Below, piece after piece: positions 1,243 through 31,452 of a DNA stretch of 32,000 nt. This stretch comes from Planctomycetales bacterium (GTDB lineage: Bacteria > 4484-113 > JAFGCY01), in assembly GCA_022646745.1 (NCBI GenBank), contig CP060262.1, positions 2,160,001-2,192,000 of the forward strand, in the 5' to 3' direction. Each line of letters opens with the position of its first letter. Position 1 is the stretch's first letter. The notes below the pieces were generated by a model. It made no database searches and had not been told where the DNA came from. It saw nothing but the letters and a program-made list of their open reading frames with translations. The position numbers were made by a program, and so were the translations under genes.

Positions 1243-2513
1243 CAGCTGTCCTCCCTGTCATTACGCTCCCCGCCGCCGGGCAGCTCATCCGCCATCCTGA
1301 GGATGCGGTCCGGGTCCTTGCCCTCCCACATCAGTTCGCCCATCTGCACCTGGAAGCCCTGCTCCAGCAGTTCGTGCATCTCCGTGATCACCTGCTCGGC
1401 ACTGTCACAGACCGCCGCGCTGCCACCGCCGACCTTCGTCACGGTGCTCTTCGTGTAACCGTCAATGTCGTAGAACACCTCGCCCTCCACCGGCACGCTG
1501 ACGCTGATCCCCTGTCCCATGTCGTTGACAGCGGTGAAGGCCAGCGCCGTGGCCGGGTGGCCGGGATGCTCCTCAGTGGCTTCGCTGACGAGGAAGCCCA
1601 TCTCGGCCAGGGTCTCGCGGATACCGCGCGCGATGTAGTCACGCTGGTCCGCCTTGACCTGTGCCGCATTGGCCTTCTCCACCAGCTCCTGTTCCTTCGC
1701 CTGGGCCTGCTGCGCCAGGTCGTCCGGCACCGCAGCCGCGTTGCCAGCGCGCAGTTCCCGCGTGCGCTCGTCCATCGCTGCCACCTCGCCGGGCAGCCAG
1801 CGCATCACGGTGGTGTCAGCCTGCAGGCCAGCCACGCAGCTTTCCCAGGCCGCCAGCCGGTCCTCCAGCTCCTGCCGTTCACGGCGCTCGCGTTCGGCAT
1901 CATGCTGCACGCGCACTTCCAGCCGGTCGATCGCCTTGTCAGCGAGGCGGATGTGGTAGTCGGTCATCACCGGGTCGTCACCACGCACGCTGGCGCGCGC
2001 CTCGTACAGGGCCTGCCTTGCCTCCTCGACGGCGCGCTCCTCCAGCTTCGTGTTGGCCTGCGCCTCGAGTGCAGCCATGCGCTCCTGCAGGGCCGTGATC
2101 CGGCCGCGGAAGGCCTCACGCTCATCCGCACTGCGCTGGGCGGCCTGCTGCCGCGCGCTGTCAACCGCCGCAGTGAGCTGCCGGCGCGCCAGCACCAGCA
2201 TCGCCTCGATGTTCGCCATGTCCGGGTTGGCAGCGTTGCTGGCCGTGGCCCGCGCACGGTTGATTTCATCACTGATGCGCATTTCATCCGCAGGTGACAG
2301 GCGTTCACTGACCGCCGCCAGCTCATGCTCAAGCGCCGTGGCCTGGTCCATCACCGCATTGCGGCGCTGCATCTCCCGCTGCCGCATCCACTCATCGGCG
2401 CGGCTGCGGCGCAGGCGCATCTCCTGCTGGGCCTCCACGCGGCGCGCCTCGGAGATCGTGGCGCGGATCGCGGCCGTCAGGCTGGGGGAGACGTACTTCG
2501 GTGAACCGCTCAT
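1239..2513 (-). CDS. Coiled-coil protein (~280 aa of charged heptad-like, E/R/A/Q-rich sequence) with a ~130-aa C-terminal globular domain; function unknown
   Basis: 424-aa ORF. ATG at 2513-2511 overlaps the stop of the upstream rSAM gene (ATGA). Its own TGA overlaps the GTG of the AAA+ gene. GC3-rich codon usage matches the neighbours. I recognised no catalytic motif. Confidence 0.7.
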
Positions 2514-3157
2514 CCCTCGCTGCCTCCGTTGCCAAGCAGGATGCCGCGCTTCGCCAGGCCATCGCGGAACTGCTCCACGAAGCCACTGCGCGGCGGCACC
2601 CCGGTGAAGCTCAGGCCTTCGTCGTCAAGTTGCAGTTCCAGCCCCACTGGGCTGTCATCCAGCCCGGCCAGCTCATCGGCGTAGCGGCCATTCAGGTCTA
2701 TCAGGCGCTGGTTGCTGGATCCGCGCCACTTAAGTTCGGCATGCCGGTGGCGGATGTAAGGCCCGTCCACCAGCAGGTCCACCTGTGCCAGCAATGTACG
2801 CTGGGAATCGCTGCCCCGGTGCAACAGGTCCTCATGGCGGTAGCCGGTGTAACACATCACGCCGATGTCGCGCGATGCGCGCACTCTCGTAATCAGATCT
2901 CTGAGGGCTTCCGGCTGCTGCATCGGTTCGCCGCCGGACAGGGTCAGCCCCTCGATCCCAGGCAGGCCGAGCAGCCAGTCCGTCATTTCGCTGATTGTCA
3001 CTGTCTCTCCCCCGTCACCGGGCCAGCTTTCGGGCACGATGCAGCCCGGGCAGCCGAAGGGGCATCCCTGGACCCAGATCACCGCCCTGATCCCCGGTCC
3101 CAGCACCGCAGTCCTGTCCTGCCTGCGGAAGATGCGCAGCTGATTGCGCTGGTCCAT
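2510..3157 (-). CDS. NrdG/PflA-family radical-SAM activating-enzyme-like protein (4Fe-4S, CX3CX2C)
   Basis: GPGIRAVIWVQGCPFGCPGCIVPESW matches the anaerobic-RNR-activase N-terminal cluster motif. LSGGEP (SAM/GGE motif) and the NrdG-type C-terminal LLVDGPY...LKWRGSSNQRLIDL are also present. 215 aa. Confidence 0.8.
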   Translation of the reverse strand: MDQRNQLRIFRRQDRTAVLGPGIRAVIWVQGCPFGCPGCIVPESWPGDGGETVTISEMTDWLLGLPGIEGLTLSGGEPMQQPEALRDLITRVRASRDIGVMCYTGYRHEDLLHRGSDSQRTLLAQVDLLVDGPYIRHRHAELKWRGSSNQRLIDLNGRYADELAGLDDSPVGLELQLDDEGLSFTGVPPRSGFVEQFRDGLAKRGILLGNGGSEG

Positions 3158-24029: not shown

Positions 24030-24731
24030 ATGCCGGACAGACCCCTCAGTTCCGCCGAGATGAAGCGCATGGCCGCGGTCGAGGCACTGATGCACATCCA
24101 CGACGGCTGCCAGCTCGGGCTGGGCAGCGGATCCACCGCGGAGATCTTCGTCGAGGAGCTGGCGAAGAAAGTCGCCCAGGGACTCAGCGTGCGCTGTTGT
24201 TCAACCTCCGAGCGCACCGCTGCGCTGGCCCGCTCACATGGCATCGAGGTGCTGCCGCTGGAAAGCTTCAACCTGCTGGATGTGACTGTGGACGGCGCGG
24301 ACGAAATTGACCCGCGGCTCAACCTGATCAAGGGCGGCGGGGCCTGCCACCTGCGTGAGAAGGTGGTGGCTTCCTACAGCGAGCGGCTGGTGATCATCGC
24401 CGACGAAAGCAAGCTCGTGAAGCAGCTCGGCGCATTCCGCATCCCGCTGGAGGTGATCCCCTTCAGCCTGCCGGCCGTACTGCGCAGCGTGGCGGCGATC
24501 CGTGGCAACCTGGCCTGCGAGCAGCGCCTGGCCGATGGCGAGGCCGTGATGACAGATGAGGGCAACCTGGTGCTGGATGCCGATTTCGGACTGATCAGCG
24601 ACCCTGCACTGCTGGCAGCACAGCTCGGTGCGGTGCCCGGCATAGTCGAGCACGGCCTGTTCGTCGGCATGGCGGAAGTGGCCTATGTCGGCTGCCAGTC
24701 CGGCCTGCGCATCCTCAAGCCGCAGCCCTAG
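24030..24731 (+). CDS. rpiA: Ribose-5-phosphate isomerase A
   Basis: LGLGSGSTA, DVTVDGADEID, LIKGGGACHLREK. 233 aa. Confidence 0.9.
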   Translation: MPDRPLSSAEMKRMAAVEALMHIHDGCQLGLGSGSTAEIFVEELAKKVAQGLSVRCCSTSERTAALARSHGIEVLPLESFNLLDVTVDGADEIDPRLNLIKGGGACHLREKVVASYSERLVIIADESKLVKQLGAFRIPLEVIPFSLPAVLRSVAAIRGNLACEQRLADGEAVMTDEGNLVLDADFGLISDPALLAAQLGAVPGIVEHGLFVGMAEVAYVGCQSGLRILKPQP

Positions 24732-27700
24732 TACTGCAGCACGGTCACCTTGCCGCTGCCATCAAACTCCGACACACTGGCTTCCGTGCCGTCCGCCCAG
24801 CGCACAGTCAGCTTGACCGGTTTGCTGCCCGCCGGGATGCCGAAGTGCAGCGGGGCCAGCGAGCTGGAGAGGTAACCGCTGCCGGCCTGCTGCTCGCGCA
24901 GCAGCACACTGCCATTGTCAAGTTCCAGCGTGGCGCGGCTGCCCACCGCCCAGCGGTTGCCATCCTTGCCGACGAGGTTCACCGCGAGTCCCGTGCCGGA
25001 CTGCTCCTGCGGATTGCGCCTGAGCACCACCGGGCTGGCATAGGCCACGCTGAGGACCAGCTCAAGCAGGCCGTCGCCGTTGCTGTCGAAGGCCTGCACC
25101 CCGCGTCCGTCGGTGAAGATGTAGATCCCGCTGCGGCCCGGCTCGACTGAGCTGAAGCCACCGCTGCCATTGCCATCCAGCAGCTGGCCGTAGCCGGCGT
25201 TCCAGCGCCCGGTCTCCGGCTGGGTGGCGTAGTAGTTGTCAGCCTGCAGCAGGTCGATGTCGCCGTCATTGTCGAAGTCACCGGCCGCGCAGCCGAAGGC
25301 GATGCTGTACTGCGCTGCCAGCGGCAGCTGCTGGGCCGTGAAGCCGCCCTTGCCATCGTTGACAAGCAGCATGCTCGCCAGCTCATTGGCGTAGTAGTGC
25401 TCCTGGATCTCCTGCGGGTCGCCGTAGATCTCATTGAAGCTGGCGTTGGCGAAGTCATGCCACTTCGGGAAGCGCTCCGCCACTGTCTGCGGCATCGCAT
25501 AGCCGCTGCAGGAGCGGCCTCGGCCGGGCAGGAACTCCTGCTCGCCCTTCTGCTTGGCCTCAACCAGCTGGCGCCTGCCGTCGCCATTGAACTCACCGGC
25601 AAACAGGGTCATCGCATGCTCGTTGTCAGCCTTGTACTTGGTATTCAGCCCCTGGTTGCCGGCCACGATGTCCAGGTCGCCGTCATTGTCGGTGTCCGCC
25701 ACAGTGAGGCTGGTCCAGATGCCGTGCGGGGCGATGTCGATTCCGTCCATCAGCCTGCCATCCACGTTGCGGTAGAGGCGCACCGGGCCGTACTCATCGC
25801 AGGTCAGCAGGTCCTGCCAGCCGTCGTTGTCAACGTCGGCGAAGCAGGCATCACTGATGCAGCCGCTGATCCCTCCATCCGGCAGGCTGCCGGCCCCGTC
25901 CACGAAGTTCAGGTTGCCTTCGTTGAGCAGCAGCTCACTGGGCACCGGGCTCAGGTAGCGGTGCGGCTTCAGCCGGCCGGCGATGAACACGTCGAGGTCG
26001 CCGTCACGGTCGATATCCGCGCTGCAGGCACTGCCGGATGAGACCTCGCTCGTGCTGATCCAGCCGCTCTGCATCCCTTCCTCGGTGTTGAGCACCAGCC
26101 AGTTGCGGTACAGCGTGGTGTCGCCACCGGCCTCGTTGCCACCGGCGGTCACCAGCATGTCCGGACGGTCGTCGCCATTGGCATCGAAGCACAGCACGCC
26201 CATCTCCTCCACTTCGGCCGGGATGCTGCCCTCCATCAGTGAACTCGCGGCGAAGCCACCCTCCGCGCCCATGTAGAGCCGGCCGGTCTGCCCGGCGGCC
26301 CCGGCGAAGTAGATGTCCATCCGGCCGTCGAGGTCAAAGTCGGCAATGCCCATTCCACCACCCAACGTGCTGCGCTGCCAGGGCAGCAGCGGCTCCTCCT
26401 CGAATTCCTGTGCCAGCGTGTCCGCTTCCTTGCGCTGCCAGGCGAAGTCCTCACGGGTGTAGATCCCCTGCTGTGCGGGCGGTGTCCAGTCCTCCAGCCC
26501 GTCACGGCGGCTGATCACGTAGTGGCTGCCGCAGGGCAGGTCGCGCTCGACCTGCAGCTTGCCGTCGGGCCAGATGATCTCAAGCCGCGTCAGGCTGGTG
26601 TGCTCGCCGGTGCCGATGTGCACCCGTGCGCTCTCCGCGCTGGAGTAGCCGCGCGCCAGCGTCACTTCGCTGGCGATCACCTTCGTACCGGCGTAGGCTT
26701 TCAGCTTGGCGCCGACGGCCTGCCAGTTGCTGCCGGGCTGGCGCAGGTCGATCGTCAGGCGGTTACCGCACTGCTTGTCATTGCGCCACACACCGAGCAA
26801 GTCATTCGTGCGGTTGGTGATGATGTCCAGGTCGCCGTCACCGTCGTAGTCCTGGATCGAGGTGCCGCAGGAGATGCTCTCGCCCACGATCCCCCAGTTG
26901 TCAGCCGGCTTCTTGTAGTGCAGCGGCGTGTCGGCGGTGAACAGCACGTCCTGGCGGGGCAGGGTGCCGAAGCTCAGCGCATGCTGCTGCAGTTCCTCGT
27001 CGCTCGCCCCGGCGGCCGACAGTGCAGCCGCCTCGTTCATCGCGTCCACGTCCACGCTGAAGCGCATCGTGTAGCCGTTGGTGGCGAACAGCTCAGGTGT
27101 GCTGGAGCAGTTCAGGTCTGCGATCCGGCAGCTCCAGGTCCACTCGCTGGCCTTAACGCCGGCCAGCTCCGCCACCTCGCTCATCCAGCCGAAGCCGCGG
27201 TTGAGGAACAGGCAGTTGCGCATGTTCTGCTGCGGCATGAAGTTGATCAGCTCCTGGCGGTACTGGTACATGTCACCGCTCTGGATCTTGCCGTCCTTGT
27301 AGTCCGCCGCCGCCATGTCGCCGACGAAGATGTCCAGCAGGCCGTCGCCATCGAGGTCGCCGTGGTCGGCGCCCATCGAGAAGTAGGGCGTGCGCCTGAG
27401 CATCGTGCGGGACTGGTCGGTGAAGAAGCCGTGCCCGTTGTTGATGAAGTAGTAGTCCGGGGTCTCCATGTCGCCGGCGAGGTACAGGTCGGTATGGCCG
27501 TCCTCGTTGTAGTCTCCGGCCAGCGCCATCAGGGTCCAGCCGATGTGGTCCATCCCGGCGTCGGCGATGCCGTTGTCAAAGTGCCCGCTGCCGTCGTTGA
27601 TCAGCAGCTGGTCGTCATCCGGCTTGACGCGCGCCTTGTTCAGCTCGTCGAAGTAGTAGAACTCGGCGGCTGCACCGGTCATGATGTAGCGCCCGGTGTT

Positions 27701-28408
27701 GTGGTCAATGCGGAAGCTGCCCTGGATGTCGGAGTCCATCTGGCTGGCCATGCTTTCGCGGCCCATCCGGTTGTTGGCGACATACAGGTCGAGGTCGCCA
27801 TCCCCCTCGATGTCGAGCGCCGCCACGGTCACGCAGGTGTTGCCGACGTCTGCGCCGCGCGCCTCGGTCTCATCCGTGAAGCCACCGCTGCCGTCGCCCA
27901 TGTACAGGCGGTTGCTGCTGCCGCGGGTGAACACGTAGAGGTCCAGCTTGCCATCGCCGTCCACGTCGACGAACATCGCGCCGGCGCAGTACTCGCCGTC
28001 CAGTGCGAGGTCAGCCCCGGCCTCGGCGGTCACATCGGTGAAGCGGAAGCCGCCCTCATTGCGGTAGAGGCGGTTGGGCTGCTCGATGCCCGCCACGTAG
28101 ATGTCAAGGTCGCCGTCGTTGTCAAAGTCACCACTGGCCAGCCCGGCCTGGGCCGCGATCTGGTCCAGCAGCACCTGCGGGTTGCTGACATTGTTGTCGA
28201 ATTCCAGCCCGGTCTCGCTGGAGGCCAGTGCCACGAAGGAATCCGCGGAGGAGTCCGCGGCGGCGAAGGGCGTGGCCACGACATGGCTGTCGGCATTCTG
28301 AGTGCCACCCTTGCCAGCGCCGCCATCGGCGGTCTTCGTGGTGTCTGTGCAGGAGGCGAGGGCCAGCAGCGTAAGCGCTGCAAGAGCGAGGATGCTCGGT
28401 TTGTTCAT
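24728..28408 (-). CDS. Large FG-GAP/VCBS-repeat lipoprotein with two ASPIC/UnbV-like modules (CRTAC1-like family)
   Basis: Lipoprotein signal MNKPSILALAALTLLALASC. Many D.D.DGD.D(I/L) FG-GAP/VCBS calcium-type repeats. Two UnbV/ASPIC-like blocks (…GAKLKAYAG…ARGYSSAESARVHIG…IIWPDG… and …GSRATLEL…GSGYLSSSLAPLHFG…VRWADG…). Confidence 0.85.
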   Translation of the reverse strand: MNKPSILALAALTLLALASCTDTTKTADGGAGKGGTQNADSHVVATPFAAADSSADSFVALASSETGLEFDNNVSNPQVLLDQIAAQAGLASGDFDNDGDLDIYVAGIEQPNRLYRNEGGFRFTDVTAEAGADLALDGEYCAGAMFVDVDGDGKLDLYVFTRGSSNRLYMGDGSGGFTDETEARGADVGNTCVTVAALDIEGDGDLDLYVANNRMGRESMASQMDSDIQGSFRIDHNTGRYIMTGAAAEFYYFDELNKARVKPDDDQLLINDGSGHFDNGIADAGMDHIGWTLMALAGDYNEDGHTDLYLAGDMETPDYYFINNGHGFFTDQSRTMLRRTPYFSMGADHGDLDGDGLLDIFVGDMAAADYKDGKIQSGDMYQYRQELINFMPQQNMRNCLFLNRGFGWMSEVAELAGVKASEWTWSCRIADLNCSSTPELFATNGYTMRFSVDVDAMNEAAALSAAGASDEELQQHALSFGTLPRQDVLFTADTPLHYKKPADNWGIVGESISCGTSIQDYDGDGDLDIITNRTNDLLGVWRNDKQCGNRLTIDLRQPGSNWQAVGAKLKAYAGTKVIASEVTLARGYSSAESARVHIGTGEHTSLTRLEIIWPDGKLQVERDLPCGSHYVISRRDGLEDWTPPAQQGIYTREDFAWQRKEADTLAQEFEEEPLLPWQRSTLGGGMGIADFDLDGRMDIYFAGAAGQTGRLYMGAEGGFAASSLMEGSIPAEVEEMGVLCFDANGDDRPDMLVTAGGNEAGGDTTLYRNWLVLNTEEGMQSGWISTSEVSSGSACSADIDRDGDLDVFIAGRLKPHRYLSPVPSELLLNEGNLNFVDGAGSLPDGGISGCISDACFADVDNDGWQDLLTCDEYGPVRLYRNVDGRLMDGIDIAPHGIWTSLTVADTDNDGDLDIVAGNQGLNTKYKADNEHAMTLFAGEFNGDGRRQLVEAKQKGEQEFLPGRGRSCSGYAMPQTVAERFPKWHDFANASFNEIYGDPQEIQEHYYANELASMLLVNDGKGGFTAQQLPLAAQYSIAFGCAAGDFDNDGDIDLLQADNYYATQPETGRWNAGYGQLLDGNGSGGFSSVEPGRSGIYIFTDGRGVQAFDSNGDGLLELVLSVAYASPVVLRRNPQEQSGTGLAVNLVGKDGNRWAVGSRATLELDNGSVLLREQQAGSGYLSSSLAPLHFGIPAGSKPVKLTVRWADGTEASVSEFDGSGKVTVLQY

Positions 28409-28472
28409 CTGCAGTAACCTTCCTCGGACGCATGGCGCAAGCGTGTCCGCGCTGGTCTAGCGTCCACTGCAG

Positions 28473-28478
28473 ATTATA
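28473..28478 (-). promoter_or_regulatory. Perfect TATAAT hexamer ~65 nt upstream of the FG-GAP gene ATG
   Basis: The minus strand reads …cctccccTATAATctgcag…. No convincing -35 is present. Confidence 0.3.
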
Positions 28479-28539
28479 GGGGAGGCCGGCCGCCCTCCAT
28501 GGCAGCTGGCATCGTGGCAGTCACTGTTGCGAAAGTGCT

Positions 28540-28698
28540 TCAGCAGCAGTCTGAACCGCTGCAGCAGGACTCGCCGCAGTGGAGCGTGATGCTCACAGTG
28601 GCGCAGCCGCAGCTGCTGCCCTCGGCGGGACGGATGTGCAGCGTGCAGCTGCCGTCACCGTTGTCCACGCATTCACCGCTCAGGTTCACGTTCTTCAT
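28540..28698 (-). CDS. Small cysteine-rich protein (52 aa, 9 Cys); metallothionein-like / metal- or redox-binding candidate
   Basis: Not in the ORF track because it is under 60 aa. Sequence: MKNVNLSGECVDNGDGSCTLHIRPAEGSSCGCATVSITLHCGESCCSGSDCC. SD GAGGTG lies 6 nt upstream of the ATG at 28698. Third codon positions are strongly GC-biased, as in neighbouring genes. It sits directly downstream of an ArsR/SmtB regulator. Confidence 0.65.
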   Translation of the reverse strand: MKNVNLSGECVDNGDGSCTLHIRPAEGSSCGCATVSITLHCGESCCSGSDCC

Positions 28699-28720
28699 GT
28701 CTGTCACCTCGATTAATTAG

Positions 28721-28736
28721 ATTATTAGAGAATAAT
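28721..28736. promoter_or_regulatory. AT-rich palindrome ATTATT-N4-AATAAT upstream of the Cys-rich ORF (candidate operator)
   Basis: A 6-4-6 perfect inverted repeat sits in the only AT-rich stretch (28711-28750) between the arsR terminator and the small ORF's SD. Confidence 0.35.
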
Positions 28737-28750
28737 AGAAATTATCGTCC

Positions 28751-28778
28751 AAAAAAATATGCGGCTAAATGCCGCATA
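28751..28778 (-). terminator. Rho-independent terminator at the 3' end of the ArsR gene
   Basis: RNA sense: UAUGCGGC-AUUUA-GCCGCAUA followed by UUUUUUU. The arsR TAG stop straddles the stem-loop junction. Confidence 0.8.
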
Positions 28779-29103
28779 CCTTCGGGTCAAAGAATTCGGC
28801 GAGCTCCTGGATGGTCTCCGGGTCAACCCAGCAGACGATCTTCTGGCCCTGGCGCTCGGTCTTGATCAGGCCGGCGCGCTTCAGTTCACGCAGGTGGTGC
28901 GATACCGTGGAGGCGGCCACGTCGAGCTTCTGGCAGATGTCGCCCACGCAGACGCAGGCCTCCTTATTGGTCACGAACACCGTGCCCGGCGTGCAGCAGT
29001 TGGTCAGCATGCGGAAGATCTTCAGGCGGTTGCTGTTGGACAGCGCCTGGAACATCTCGGCAAGCACTTCGGTACGGTCGGTTTCTGTTAGAACTTTCGA
29101 CAT
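28765..29103 (-). CDS. ArsR/SmtB-family metalloregulatory transcription factor
   Basis: EMFQALSNSNRLKIFRML…ACVCVGDICQKLDVAASTVSHHLRELKRAGLI (a CVC alpha3-type site plus the wHTH SHHL..L block). There are extra Cys pairs (NCC, C-terminal VCGI). First ATG at 29103; the tracked start at 29139 is a TTG lying in the -35 box. Confidence 0.85.
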   Translation of the reverse strand: MSKVLTETDRTEVLAEMFQALSNSNRLKIFRMLTNCCTPGTVFVTNKEACVCVGDICQKLDVAASTVSHHLRELKRAGLIKTERQGQKIVCWVDPETIQELAEFFDPKVCGI

Positions 29104-29110
29104 CGCTCGA

Positions 29111-29139
29111 ATTATAACCCGATCTAAGCATGGATGCAA
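29111..29139 (-). promoter_or_regulatory. Sigma70-type promoter giving a leaderless arsR mRNA
   Basis: The minus strand reads TTGCAT-N17-TATAAT-N7-ATG (‑35 at 29139-29134, ‑10 at 29116-29111, ATG at 29103). No SD is present. Confidence 0.6.
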
Positions 29140-29186
29140 GGAAAAAGGGGGAAAAGTGGGGAGTTTGGAGTGGGGAGTGGGGAGAT

Positions 29187-29248
29187 CAGTGATCAGTAGT
29201 CAGTGGTCAGTGGTCAGTGGTTAGTGGTCAGTGGTCAGTGATCAGTAG
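29187..29248. repeat. Heptamer tandem array (CAGTGGT-type, ~9 units)
   Basis: cagtgat cagtagt cagtggt cagtggt cagtggt tagtggt cagtggt cagtgat cagtag. Confidence 0.9.
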
Positions 29249-29316
29249 GAGGTCAGGCCCATGGCCTGACAGGAGGCCAGTGCCATGCACTGGCAGGAAT
29301 GCGGTCCCATGGACCG
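29247..29316. repeat. Three serial hairpins with different stems and an identical CAT loop, each preceded by AGGAGG/AGGAAT
   Basis: GTCAGGCC-CAT-GGCCTGAC (29252-70), GCCAGTGC-CAT-GCACTGGC (29276-94), CGGTCC-CAT-GGACCG (29302-16). Period ~24-26 nt. Confidence 0.8.
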
Positions 29317-29570
29317 ATTGAGAGAGAAGAAGGCAGCGGGCATAAGGCAAAAGGCAGGGGGGCAGAAGGCAGGAGGCAGGATAAAGGTGAGAACGGAGCG
29401 GCGTCGAGAAGTCATGCTGTATGCGTGACGAAGCTGCGCCGGATCAAGCCCAGTCCAGGTATGGCGTATAAAGCAAGCGAAGCTGCGCTTCGCGGCTCCC
29501 TTTTTGCTCAATCATCCCTGCATAATGCTGATTGATCCCGACGGCTGGAAGCCGAATCACCGAACTACTG

Positions 29571-29620
29571 CTTCTGCTTCTCATTCTGCTTCTGCTTCTC
29601 ATTCTGCTTCTGCCTTCTGC
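29571..29620. repeat. 18-bp tandem repeat CTTCTGCTTCTCATTCTG (2 full units plus a partial)
   Basis: Units at 29571-29588 and 29589-29606 are identical. A related TTCTCATTCTCATTCTG stretch recurs at ~31310-31327. Confidence 0.8.
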
Positions 29621-29703
29621 CTCCTGCCTTCTGGCTACTGACCACTCCCCACTCCAAACTCCCACCTCCCTTTGTTAATTCTTTCATATTCATCGCCTTT
29701 ACC

Positions 29704-29731
29704 TTGACTAAATTCACGTCGCTGGTAAACT
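29704..29731 (+). promoter_or_regulatory. Candidate promoter of the 225-aa ORF
   Basis: TTGACT-N16-TAAACT in an AT-rich stretch. GGGGGA SD-like sequence lies 5 nt before the ATG at 29764. Confidence 0.4.
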
Positions 29732-29763
29732 AACGTTTAGCAAAGATTGTACGGGGGACTAAT

Positions 29764-30441
29764 ATGACCAACTCCAACAATGCCGCCCTGGAACTGATCG
29801 GGACGGCTCCGCGCCGTCCACTGGACTGGCTGATGGTTTACAGCCTTGAGATGCACGGCGGGCTCGACGATGACTGGCTGAAGGCCAGCGGGCTGGACCG
29901 AGCTTCCGCCGAGCGCCTGCTGGCGCAGCATCCCGAGTACCGCCAGGAGGCCCGCCAGCTGCGCGGGCTAGGCAGGTTGCTCACGCTTGAGATGCTGTTC
30001 GAGCTCCTGCGCCAGCGCGCTATGGAAATGCTGGCCGCTGCCACGAAGCCGGCGGAACTGAAGAGCCTGCTTGGTACACTCTCCGGCCTCCGCGCCCTCG
30101 AGCAGCGCGGGCTTGAGCCGAAACCGAAGCGCGCAGCCAGGCAGCCAAAGCCGCTGCAGGATCCAGCGCCTGCCCCGACTGACAGAAGTGGCCTGGCCGT
30201 GATGCCGGAGCAGTCCGAGGAATCCACAGCGGATGCAGCGGACCCGCGACCGGAGCAGGAGCTGCCCAGCCTGCCCGACATCACGGAGCTGCAGCGGATG
30301 TCACCGATCACCCGCCACAAGCTGGTCAAGGGCTTCCGCACCAGCGTGCAGGAGCTGTTCGATGCTGACAACCTGCCGCGCCAGCAGCGCCGCCAGCTGG
30401 AGCGCATCATCGAAAAGCTGGACAAAGCCAGGCTGCAGTAG
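29764..30441 (+). CDS. Hypothetical protein (225 aa): helical N- and C-terminal parts, with a P/E/A-rich linker likely to be disordered
   Basis: Clean ORF with GC3-rich codons and a plausible promoter and SD. I recognised no family motif. The antisense 222-aa ORF (29838-30506) is S/R/C-rich and rejected. Confidence 0.6.
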   Translation: MTNSNNAALELIGTAPRRPLDWLMVYSLEMHGGLDDDWLKASGLDRASAERLLAQHPEYRQEARQLRGLGRLLTLEMLFELLRQRAMEMLAAATKPAELKSLLGTLSGLRALEQRGLEPKPKRAARQPKPLQDPAPAPTDRSGLAVMPEQSEESTADAADPRPEQELPSLPDITELQRMSPITRHKLVKGFRTSVQELFDADNLPRQQRRQLERIIEKLDKARLQ

Positions 30442-30526
30442 CGGCGCGCGCATCGCGCGACTGGCAGTGGATGCGGCGAGGATAAGATAACAGTCATGCT
30501 TGGCAATCCGCCAAATGTGCTTCGTG

Positions 30527-30589
30527 TCTTCGCGCCTTCGTGACAACAAAATAGTTTGCATAAACCACGAAGTCACGAAGGCACGAAGA
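30527..30589. repeat. Hairpin module B: 18-bp stem (17/18 paired) built from CTTCGTG-type words, 27-nt AT-rich loop
   Basis: TCTTCGCGCCTTCGTGAC (30527-44) pairs with GTCACGAAGGCACGAAGA (30572-89). The loop contains ATAGTTTG (30551-58). Confidence 0.8.
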
Positions 30590-30617
30590 ATGGACGGGGT
30601 TGGGATTGACGGAACCG

Positions 30618-30672
30618 GAAGTAGGGAGGCGGTAATACCGACTCACGGGATGGGGTTTTACCCCATCCCTAC
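30618..30672. repeat. Second copy of the double-hairpin REP-like element (see 9868-9922)
   Basis: GAAGTAGGGAGGCGGTAATACCGACTCACGGGATGGGGTTTTACCCCATCCCTAC. The second hairpin is intact and the first is partly eroded. Confidence 0.75.
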
Positions 30673-30930
30673 CTCAAAGAACTTGGCAACATGCCCTCAC
30701 TCGCGGACTGCGGTGCGCACGCAGTACCCGCTCGGGTGCTGGCGTCGCTTGGCGACGCCGGTACACTTATCGTTTGATTCATCGACAAGCTCAAGTACCG
30801 GCGCAGCCATGACGCGAGCAATGAGCAATGAAGACTGAGCAATGAGCCTGACAAACATCTTCTTCCACTGTGGAACTCTGTGGATCTCTGTGTTTGACAA
30901 TCCTCTTACATCCATGTTGCCAAAATAGTA

Positions 30931-31400
30931 CCGGCGCGCGCTTCGTGCGCCTGGGAGTGGATGCTGCGAGGTTCGCAAGACAGATGGGCTTGGCAATCTG
31001 ATTGATTCACTCCACGCCTCTGTTCTTTCTCTGCGCCTCTGCGCCTATAGAACCATGCTGGCGAGCACGGTGCTTCCCGCGCGACTGCGCGTCTTGATAG
31101 TTTGTACCTGAGCGCTTCATATTCGTTCGAGTGGCAGCGTAACCTGCGTAGCGGTTCTTTTGGCGCAGAGGCGCAGAGGGATCCTGAGACGCAGAGGAAA
31201 TCAGCTATCTGGCAACATTCACTCACTCGCAAATCGCATTGCGCACGAATTACCCGCTCGCGTGCTGGCGTCGCATGGCGACGCCGCTACTGCTTATCAT
31301 TTCTTCCTGCTTCTCATTCTCATTCTGTTTCTCTTACTGCCCACTGACAACTGACCACTAACAACTTCTTCCACTATTCGCACTATTCGCACTATCCGGA
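30931..31400. repeat. Composite intergenic repeat unit 2 (R1b, hairpin module C, R2b 31209-31302, word-repeat tail)
   Basis: Same module order as unit 1, offset ~490-525 bp. The tail holds TTCTCATTC, CTGAC(A/C)ACT and CACTATTCG short repeats. The CTTCTTCCACT junction is shared with unit 1 (30858-68 against 31366-76). Confidence 0.7.
31029..31178. repeat. Hairpin module C: perfect 17-bp inverted repeat of CTCTGCGC-type words around a 116-nt spacer
   Basis: CTCTGCGCCTCTGCGCC (31029-45) against GGCGCAGAGGCGCAGAG (31162-78). The spacer contains ATAGTTTG (31097-31104). Confidence 0.8.
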
Positions 31401-31406
31401 CCATTG

Positions 31407-31447
31407 CCAGACTGTCGTCTGGCCTCCACGCCTGGCTTGCGCCAGGC
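31407..31447 (-). terminator. Two GC-rich hairpins just downstream of the DUF2207 stop (possible terminator; no U-tract)
   Basis: GCCTGGC-ttgc-GCCAGGC (31430-47) and CCAGAC-tgtc-GTCTGG (31407-22), plus-strand coordinates. Confidence 0.3.
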
Positions 31448-31452
31448 CTCCA

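Follow-up and report, generated by a model that had tools for sequence, protein, structure and literature searches.

A gene encoding a 52-residue protein with nine Cys, located directly behind a gene of the ArsR/SmtB metalloregulators in the genome of an uncultured sludge bacterium (Planctomycetales), is, as judged by comparison of its homologues, a real gene under purifying selection, the thiols being what selection retains; the protein represents a new sequence family within the known theme of small Cys-proteins linked to ArsR. The gene lies in a stretch of 32,000 nucleotides—hereafter the window—covering positions 2,160,001–2,192,000 of the contig CP060262.1 (assembly GCA_022646745.1), from the first letter of which all positions given below without another label are counted. 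The protein has about an even chance of being a metal(loid)-thiolate binder tied to this ArsR, while the narrower proposal that it binds arsenite specifically, as an 'arsenic metallothionein' or chaperone holding three As(III) on its nine thiols, is tentative and should be read as rather doubtful. The elements concerned are the following:

28540–28698, minus strand: gene of the 52-residue protein with nine Cys, stop codon included
28705–28710, minus strand: Shine-Dalgarno sequence GAGGTG, with the ATG (28698) 6 nucleotides further on, the same in all three genomes of the genus
28717–28752, minus strand: conserved AT-rich promoter-like block with a candidate -35 hexamer TTGGAC (28747–28752), a 17-nucleotide spacer and a candidate -10 hexamer TCTAAT (28724–28729)
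28721–28736, minus strand: perfect palindrome ATTATTCTCTAATAAT (ATTATT-CTCT-AATAAT), overlapping the candidate -10 hexamer
28751–28778, minus strand: intrinsic-terminator-like element, i.e. a hairpin (28758–28778) and a T7 run (28751–28757), with the arsR stop codon inside
28765–29103, minus strand: arsR, encoding an ArsR/SmtB metalloregulator of 112 residues with Cys36-Cys37, a CVC-x4-C motif at the α3 position, Cys91 and Cys110
29096–29111, minus strand: palindrome TTCGAGCGATGTCGAA, spanning the arsR start codon, probable ArsR box, invariant in the genus
29096–29139, minus strand: arsR promoter TTGCAT-17-TATAAT with hexamers at 29134–29139 and 29111–29116, giving a leaderless mRNA, invariant in the genus

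The translation of the small gene agrees exactly with the one given in an earlier reading of this DNA made from the letters alone (the sequence-only reading), and the GAGGTG Shine-Dalgarno sequence with its 6-nucleotide spacing, the codons rich in third-position G and C as well as the Cys spacings described there were all reproduced. The G+C content at the third codon position is 0.85 in the small gene, 0.85 in arsR and 0.89 in the downstream FG-GAP gene. A six-frame search of 39 relatives revealed proteins with 77% and 58% identity at the same locus in both other species of the genus. The open reading frame (ORF) is thus intact and syntenic in three species out of three, adjoining the same arsR in all of them, and the gene order common to the genus is a DUF2207-like gene, arsR, the small ORF and the gene of an FG-GAP/ASPIC lipoprotein. 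A conserved homologous ORF, the lack of which would have refuted the sequence-only reading, thus exists in related genomes: the ratio of nonsynonymous to synonymous substitution rates (dN/dS; Nei-Gojobori method, three species) amounts to 0.14–0.33 for the small gene against 0.05–0.08 for arsR, and the pairwise differences by codon position (8/6/21, 12/15/23 and 9/16/28) are dominated by the third one. A spurious ORF was also considered, the antisense frame being open as well, but only the sense frame is consistent with the codon-position bias, the Shine-Dalgarno sequence and the conservation of ATG and Cys.

The alignment of the family comprises nine sequences—the members from the genus, cluster members and one 51-residue relative derived from Logan—in which eight Cys are invariant, the remaining one, C10, being present in 8/9. 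It is this conservation, together with the dN/dS values and the third-position bias, that argues for a real gene with its thiols under selection. By contrast with the Cys, neither His is conserved, H21 being replaced by N, T or E, and H40 by N, R or K; since both vary, they are unlikely to be ligands, and the two His, which the sequence-only reading had included in the metal-binding signature, have to be dropped from it. As far as databases are concerned, scans of the protein against Pfam and NCBIfam yielded no family, the sole Pfam match being a CFSR repeat at E 0.055, and the earlier proposal of a new small protein family is therefore borne out by a genuine conserved gene for which neither collection holds a model. 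Databases are not wholly without it, NCBI nr listing the protein and one relative, each under the name 'hypothetical protein'. When 5.8 billion proteins were queried in two word-indexed searches, nothing beyond the nine-Cys family itself came back, and a hidden Markov model (HMM) run against 1.84 billion representatives, whatever their length, gave two small true relatives and no fusion of the family to ArsR or to any other domain. The family was not found in a peptide scan of metagenome contigs of the Joint Genome Institute, nor by tblastn in plasmids, and the ESM Atlas gave no usable match. A profile search within the 22-species phylum located the gene in the three species of the genus only and in none of the other 19.

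The nine Cys, at positions 10, 18, 30, 32, 41, 45, 46, 51 and 52, form the motifs C-x7-C, CxC and C-x3-CC-x4-CC in a protein that is 17% Cys, contains no Phe, Tyr or Trp, has 6 acidic versus 2 basic residues, is rich in Ser/Thr and bears neither a signal peptide nor a hydrophobic leader. It has the low mass, the high Cys content and the lack of aromatic residues by which metallothioneins are operationally recognised. The earlier designation as a metallothionein-like candidate holds as to composition—Cys content, absence of aromatics and of a signal peptide—but not as to His, and the kin of the regulator (see below) point to a metalloid over Zn/Cd. The AlphaFold2 model, built from a small alignment, predicts a three-stranded sheet with strands at residues 6–12, 17–24 and 35–40 (predicted local distance difference test score, pLDDT, 73). 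According to the mechanism proposed here, an N-terminal β-hairpin and a third strand would make up a mini β-sheet presenting the nine thiols, with C10 and C18 across the hairpin, the CxC motif, one isolated Cys and the CC-x4-CC tail with its two vicinal pairs; the cytosolic protein would bind thiophilic metal(loid) ions via thiolates, favouring arsenite, Sb(III) or a methylated arsenical, and nine thiols would give three S3 sites. Its role might be that of a sponge or buffer, or of handing a metalloid over to a partner such as the ArsM-like enzyme of the genome.

The predicted sheet has to be weighed also with regard to a small redox, Fe-S or structural-Zn protein, for instance a thiol-disulfide relay for the ArsM-like enzyme, with no function as a metal store. 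A folded three-stranded sheet and invariant Cys positions would suit such a protein, as they are found in cofactor-binding mini-proteins, and ArsM enzymes use Cys relays; the sequence, however, lacks the CxxC motifs typical of rubredoxins, ferredoxins and zinc ribbons—in fact, it has no CxxC at all—and fold searches with the model retrieved nothing significant (best Foldseek E 0.7, best VIA Z 3.7), which makes this alternative quite improbable. With regard to the hairpin itself, the 'ECxDNGDGSCT' segment at residues 9–22 (about 28633–28674 of the window) closely resembles filamin Ig repeats and collagen-flanked surface repeats, and a sequence search of the PDB found just the local 'DNGDGSxT' β-hairpin motif, as in filamin repeats. 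This shared motif accounts for strong but spurious profile matches to nearly Cys-free giant repeat proteins. The other matches of the HMM search were rejected as homologues, since those sampled (6/35) are almost Cys-free repeat proteins having only the 'DNGDGSxT' motif in common with the family. The matches support a hairpin at residues 9–22 and nothing more.

The tie to arsenic comes mainly from the neighbouring regulator. ArsR matches the profiles NF033788 (74 bits, cut-off 55), PF01022 (42.7 bits, cut-off 22) and PF12840. Its 80 best relatives from metagenome contigs exhibit 46–61% identity, and an arsM-like gene is located directly behind arsR in 65 of these 80 loci, usually after a gap of 56–73 nucleotides; the sampled ones score 338–368 bits on NF008823 (cut-off 263). 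Among the remaining loci, two have an MddA-like methyltransferase gene directly behind arsR, six have a contig end within 200 nucleotides of it, four have 216–260 nucleotides left behind it without any match, and three (L038, L071 and L073) carry a small Cys-rich ORF and no arsM. In a quick maximum-likelihood tree, the ArsR studied here nests within this arsM-linked radiation, the enclosing clades being supported by values of 91–93 in the Shimodaira-Hasegawa-like approximate likelihood ratio test, whereas the ArsR-like genes of the sister genera G004 and G005 (41–46% identity) are positioned outside it. The arsM-linked relatives speak for arsenite or some other metalloid and less for Zn/Cd.

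Counted over 81 sequences, Cys36 is retained in 81, Cys37 in 77, Cys91 in 80 and Cys52 in 62, all four being present in this ArsR. From the conservation of Cys36-Cys37 and Cys91, the putative sensory site would consist of the vicinal Cys pair after helix 2 and the β-wing Cys. AfArsR and CgArsR are As(III)-responsive repressors with a vicinal CC pair. The Cys layout, with residues in the coil that follows helix 2 and in the β-wing, is reminiscent of that modelled for the arsenic-responsive ArsR2 from Pseudodesulfovibrio mercurii ND132 (bioRxiv 10.1101/2022.10.17.512643). Compared with all three, however, the positions of Cys36-Cys37 and Cys91, known here from sequence, match no described site type.

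The regulator also bears on the question whether the protein is a classical metallothionein for divalent metals, i.e. a protein that would hold Zn(II)/Cd(II) in a cluster of the M3Cys9 type, or else bind Cu(I), its induction depending on an SmtB-like sensor. SmtB/ArsR repressors control bacterial metallothionein (smtA-type) and metal-efflux genes; the count of nine Cys equals that of SmtA and of the β-domain of mammalian metallothioneins, and the CVC motif at the α3 position, kept by this ArsR, is one that Cd/Pb/Zn sensors, CadC among them, also use. In the PDB, moreover, the regulator is closest to CzrA and SmtB. On the other hand, the α5 metal site of His/Asp/Glu is absent from the ArsR sequence and its nearest relatives are overwhelmingly arsM-linked, only 7/81 and 3/81 sequences of the clade have the α3 residues Cys50 and Cys57, respectively, and the small protein with its variable His has no match to PF02069. 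All in all, a metallothionein of this kind appears unlikely. The arrangement is nevertheless most like that of smtB-smtA from Synechococcus PCC 7942 and the BmtA family, both being folded, Cys-rich cytosolic proteins of about 55 residues with nine Cys, an ArsR/SmtB neighbour and an AT-rich promoter palindrome. The differences are that the small gene here stands in tandem behind arsR, smtA being divergent from its regulator gene, and that the regulator has the Cys36-Cys37/Cys91 signature of an arsM-linked clade instead of the α5 Zn site. SmtA binds four Zn(II) per molecule (PMC10612145). As for PF02069 (Metallothio_Pro), neither the 52-residue protein (E ≤ 1) nor anything else in the whole genome matched it, the Synechococcus control being positive. 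The conserved His ligands in a zinc-finger-like fold that mark SmtA/BmtA were likewise found neither in the nine homologues nor by comparison with solved chains. The impression of the sequence-only reading that the protein is not an SmtA/BmtA is thus confirmed by the lack of any sequence or profile similarity.

Returning to arsenite as the tentatively favoured ligand, it is suggested by four observations, namely the arsM-linked clade of the regulator, the CC-x4-CC tail recalling the As(III) sites of ArsD, the nine thiols corresponding to three S3 sites, and the presence in the genome of an ArsM-like gene with no Acr3, ArsB or Grx-type ArsC found in its single contig. ArsD is a 120-residue thioredoxin-fold protein serving the ArsA ATPase. 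Its arsenite sites in R773 are Cys12-13-18, Cys112-113 and Cys119-120 (PMC4562236), that is CC-x4-C and a C-terminal CC-x5-CC, as compared with the invariant C-terminal CC-x4-CC of the 52-residue protein, a likeness at the level of motifs only; both proteins are encoded in a context linked to ArsR (PMC4562236). The protein described here is, however, shorter, has a different predicted fold, shows no detectable homology to ArsD and gave no match to PF06953 in the Pfam scan. By analogy, it may thus be placed closest to smtB-smtA in arrangement and to ArsD in the chemistry of Cys pairs, and outside both families. The only ArsM-like gene of the genome (G000:C1:2880864–2881550; L099:1408–2202, minus strand) scores 214 bits, below the cut-off of 263, and is located 18 nucleotides behind ribBA, about 690 kb from the small gene, with no ArsR nearby.

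Concerning the control of the small gene, the strong intrinsic terminator noticed earlier between arsR and this gene could be verified, its hairpin folding with -19.4 kcal/mol (z -5.0) ahead of the T7 run; the equivalents in the two sister species are weaker, with -16.1 and -11.6 kcal/mol, and a T7–8 run comes after each. It should be noted that a simple pattern scanner did not list the terminator, and that the promoter hexamers near the small gene were assigned by eye, not by the scanner. The perfect ATTATT-N4-AATAAT palindrome seen in the AT-rich upstream region by the sequence-only reading is indeed conserved in the three genomes: an 18-nucleotide core around it is invariant, with further conserved flanking columns, and 28 nucleotides are identical between this genome (G000) and the sister species G001, in contrast to synonymous sites, of which 43–71% differ among the three species (pS, the proportion of synonymous differences, 0.43–0.71). 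The palindrome is unique in the 4.1-Mb genome, where up to two mismatches yield 32 matches versus 20 for a control pattern, and the sole match with one mismatch lies between convergent genes. The genome-wide site scan thus gave no sign of a regulon for it.

The promoter of arsR itself is of a different kind. In 75 metagenomic arsR loci, a TTGACA-17-TATAAT promoter is positioned for a leaderless mRNA, and a palindrome TTCGAyAyATGTCGAA holds the start codon, an exact TTCGA-N4-8-TCGAA being present in 45 of them. Because the element recurs throughout the clade and the recognition-helix motif STVSHH is identical in this ArsR and the clade sequences examined, TTCGA-N6-TCGAA over the arsR start is likely to be the box of this ArsR, and on the same two grounds the AT-rich palindrome before the small gene is probably not its standard box. 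Since the operator palindrome includes the start codon, the conserved MSN/MSK N-terminus of the clade ArsRs looks like a constraint at the level of DNA. The genome contains five TTCGA-N6-TCGAA sites versus two for a control pattern, too few to call a regulon. One of the sites (G000:C1:1012432–1012447; L113:1533–1548) lies about 80 nucleotides upstream of a thioredoxin-reductase-like gene, a possible second target of ArsR. Control of the small gene by ArsR, as proposed in the sequence-only reading, remains a plausible inference. The gene could be transcribed from the ArsR-boxed arsR promoter by polymerase reading through the hairpin, an internal hairpin attenuating an ars operon being a precedent (PMC4562236), or, alternatively, from its own promoter, with the palindrome bound by some protein, which could still be ArsR.

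The same pairing invites the view that the small Cys protein is a partner or co-sensor of ArsR, binding the effector and docking on the repressor as SrnQ does with SrnR, without any role as a sink. The strict association with arsR in the three species would agree with it, as would the Cys/His-rich C-terminal tail carried by the related ArsR of the genus G004; the clade ArsR, however, already possesses an invariant Cys triad of its own, no form fused to ArsR turned up among the 1.84 billion representatives, and the small gene has its own terminator-separated promoter, so the probability of such a partnership is slim. The protein might also be the precursor of a Cys-rich peptide that is either modified or exported, such as a lanthipeptide, ranthipeptide, sactipeptide or disulfide-rich toxin. 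A precursor of a modified peptide had been regarded as the weaker alternative already by the sequence-only reading, owing to the lack of an adjacent maturase gene, and this assessment stands, the neighbours in the window being arsR, the FG-GAP lipoprotein gene, rpiA and the trp operon. The richness in Ser/Thr and Cys would be in keeping with a precursor, and the best, although weak, structural neighbour of the model is a disulfide-rich sea-anemone toxin (Z 3.7), but neither the window nor the sister loci contain a maturase or a transporter, there is no split into leader and core, conservation extending from residue 6 to the end, and no signal peptide or NCBIfam match was found. A peptide precursor is thus highly improbable.

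Several points weigh against the favoured reading, a metal(loid)-thiolate protein with a link to ArsR and a preference for arsenite. There is no arsM adjacent at this locus, where the small gene and then the FG-GAP gene follow arsR; the conserved terminator and the own conserved promoter block part the small gene from arsR, the AT-rich palindrome being unlike TTCGA-N6-TCGAA. The model predicts a folded β-sheet and not a classical disordered metallothionein, and a structural Zn or an Fe-S centre could be what its Cys bind. A comparison of the family HMM with the N-termini of ArsM, which carry Cys motifs, was not significant (E at least 0.18). The family is tiny, consisting of one genus and a few metagenome sequences, and the absence of further ars genes may just as well mean that the lineage is not adapted to arsenic.

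A further argument for a thiol-rich protein in this position is offered by other small genes found behind regulators of the same or a related type:

L097:2891–3160, plus strand: 89-residue Cys-pair/Met-rich ORF directly behind arsR
L038:896–1099, L071:483–686 and L073:1385–1639: the same small ORF directly behind arsR (67–89 residues for the four loci together)
L018:1850–2005, plus strand: 51-residue ORF of the sister genus G005 with nine Cys, a Shine-Dalgarno sequence AAGGAG and a C-terminal CC, 40 nucleotides behind an ArsR-like gene
L017:1028–1288 (minus strand), 2103–2363 (plus strand) and 2564–3013 (minus strand): Cys/His genes of the genus G004

The Cys-pair/Met-rich family is built of 'MGKMMKDCC'-type repeats and has no match in NCBIfam. 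At L097, one of the 65 arsM loci, the order is arsR, the 89-residue ORF, arsM 20 nucleotides on, and then a C_GCAxxG_C_C protein. In the G005 family (P0041, P0043 and P0044; 50–51 residues), the core CDCGCNxTVTVSCDC is invariant and CCGGK stands at the C-terminus, P0041 having nine Cys; the family is conserved, with homologues at 78% and 57%; the ArsR-like gene preceding the 51-residue ORF encodes a protein rich in CC pairs that is more distant than the arsM-linked clade. Homology of either family to the 52-residue protein was not detectable, hhalign giving probabilities of 0.4–2% for the G005 family. All of them occupy the same slot, the ArsR in front either belonging to the clade or being related to it, and have CC pairs including a C-terminal CC; they differ from the present gene in being operonic with arsR, while the latter stands behind a terminator and a separate promoter block. 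As this place is taken at other loci by small Cys-rich genes of unrelated families, thiol-rich mini-proteins have been recruited repeatedly behind such regulators, once inside an arsR-arsM operon. In the genus G004, the ArsR-like gene with the Cys/His-rich C-terminal tail is flanked by two paralogous genes of 86-residue Cys proteins (CPFFND) and the gene of a 149-residue protein, which has CC pairs and a long tract rich in His; no match in Pfam was obtained for any of these flanking genes.

To our knowledge, only few families of bacterial metallothioneins are known, i.e. BmtA/SmtA and the mycobacterial MymT, and we know of no gene-encoded arsenite-binding mini-protein that has been characterised, including in the literature searched. 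The 52-residue family and the unrelated Cys-pair genes in the same slot suggest a recurring small-protein part of metalloid handling that has been missed by gene callers and family databases. If the protein were an arsenite binder, the slot behind an arsM-type ArsR would have been taken independently by several unrelated Cys-pair proteins, this one among them, and sequestration or hand-off by mini-proteins would be an overlooked arm of bacterial arsenic handling. Being small, acidic and devoid of a signal peptide, the protein should be convenient for studies of metal(loid)-binding chemistry, possibly also for biosensing or bioremediation. The clade-wide leaderless arsR promoter with the start codon inside the operator could be of practical use in the design of arsenic biosensors.

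Two further elements of the window adjoin the small gene on its downstream side:

24728–28408, minus strand: gene of an FG-GAP/ASPIC-UnbV lipoprotein of 1226 residues (PF13517, PF07593 and PF01839), syntenic and at the same position in the sister species G001
28473–28498, minus strand: conserved GC hairpin (28481–28498) followed by TATAAT (28473–28478), between the small gene and the FG-GAP gene in the three genomes

Nothing shows that the lipoprotein belongs to a module with the small gene. The folding energy of the GC hairpin is not unusual (z -0.6), and the segment is probably the promoter region of the FG-GAP gene. A search of Rfam with positions 28300–29300 gave no match. On the other side of arsR, positions 29146–31452 represent about 2.3 kb of repeat-built DNA, present in this genome alone, which separates arsR from the DUF2207-like gene and contains an orphan ORF of 225 residues with no match in Pfam. 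Beside the hairpin and TATAAT, a CTGCAG is conserved in the three species and recurs immediately before the ATG of the FG-GAP gene.

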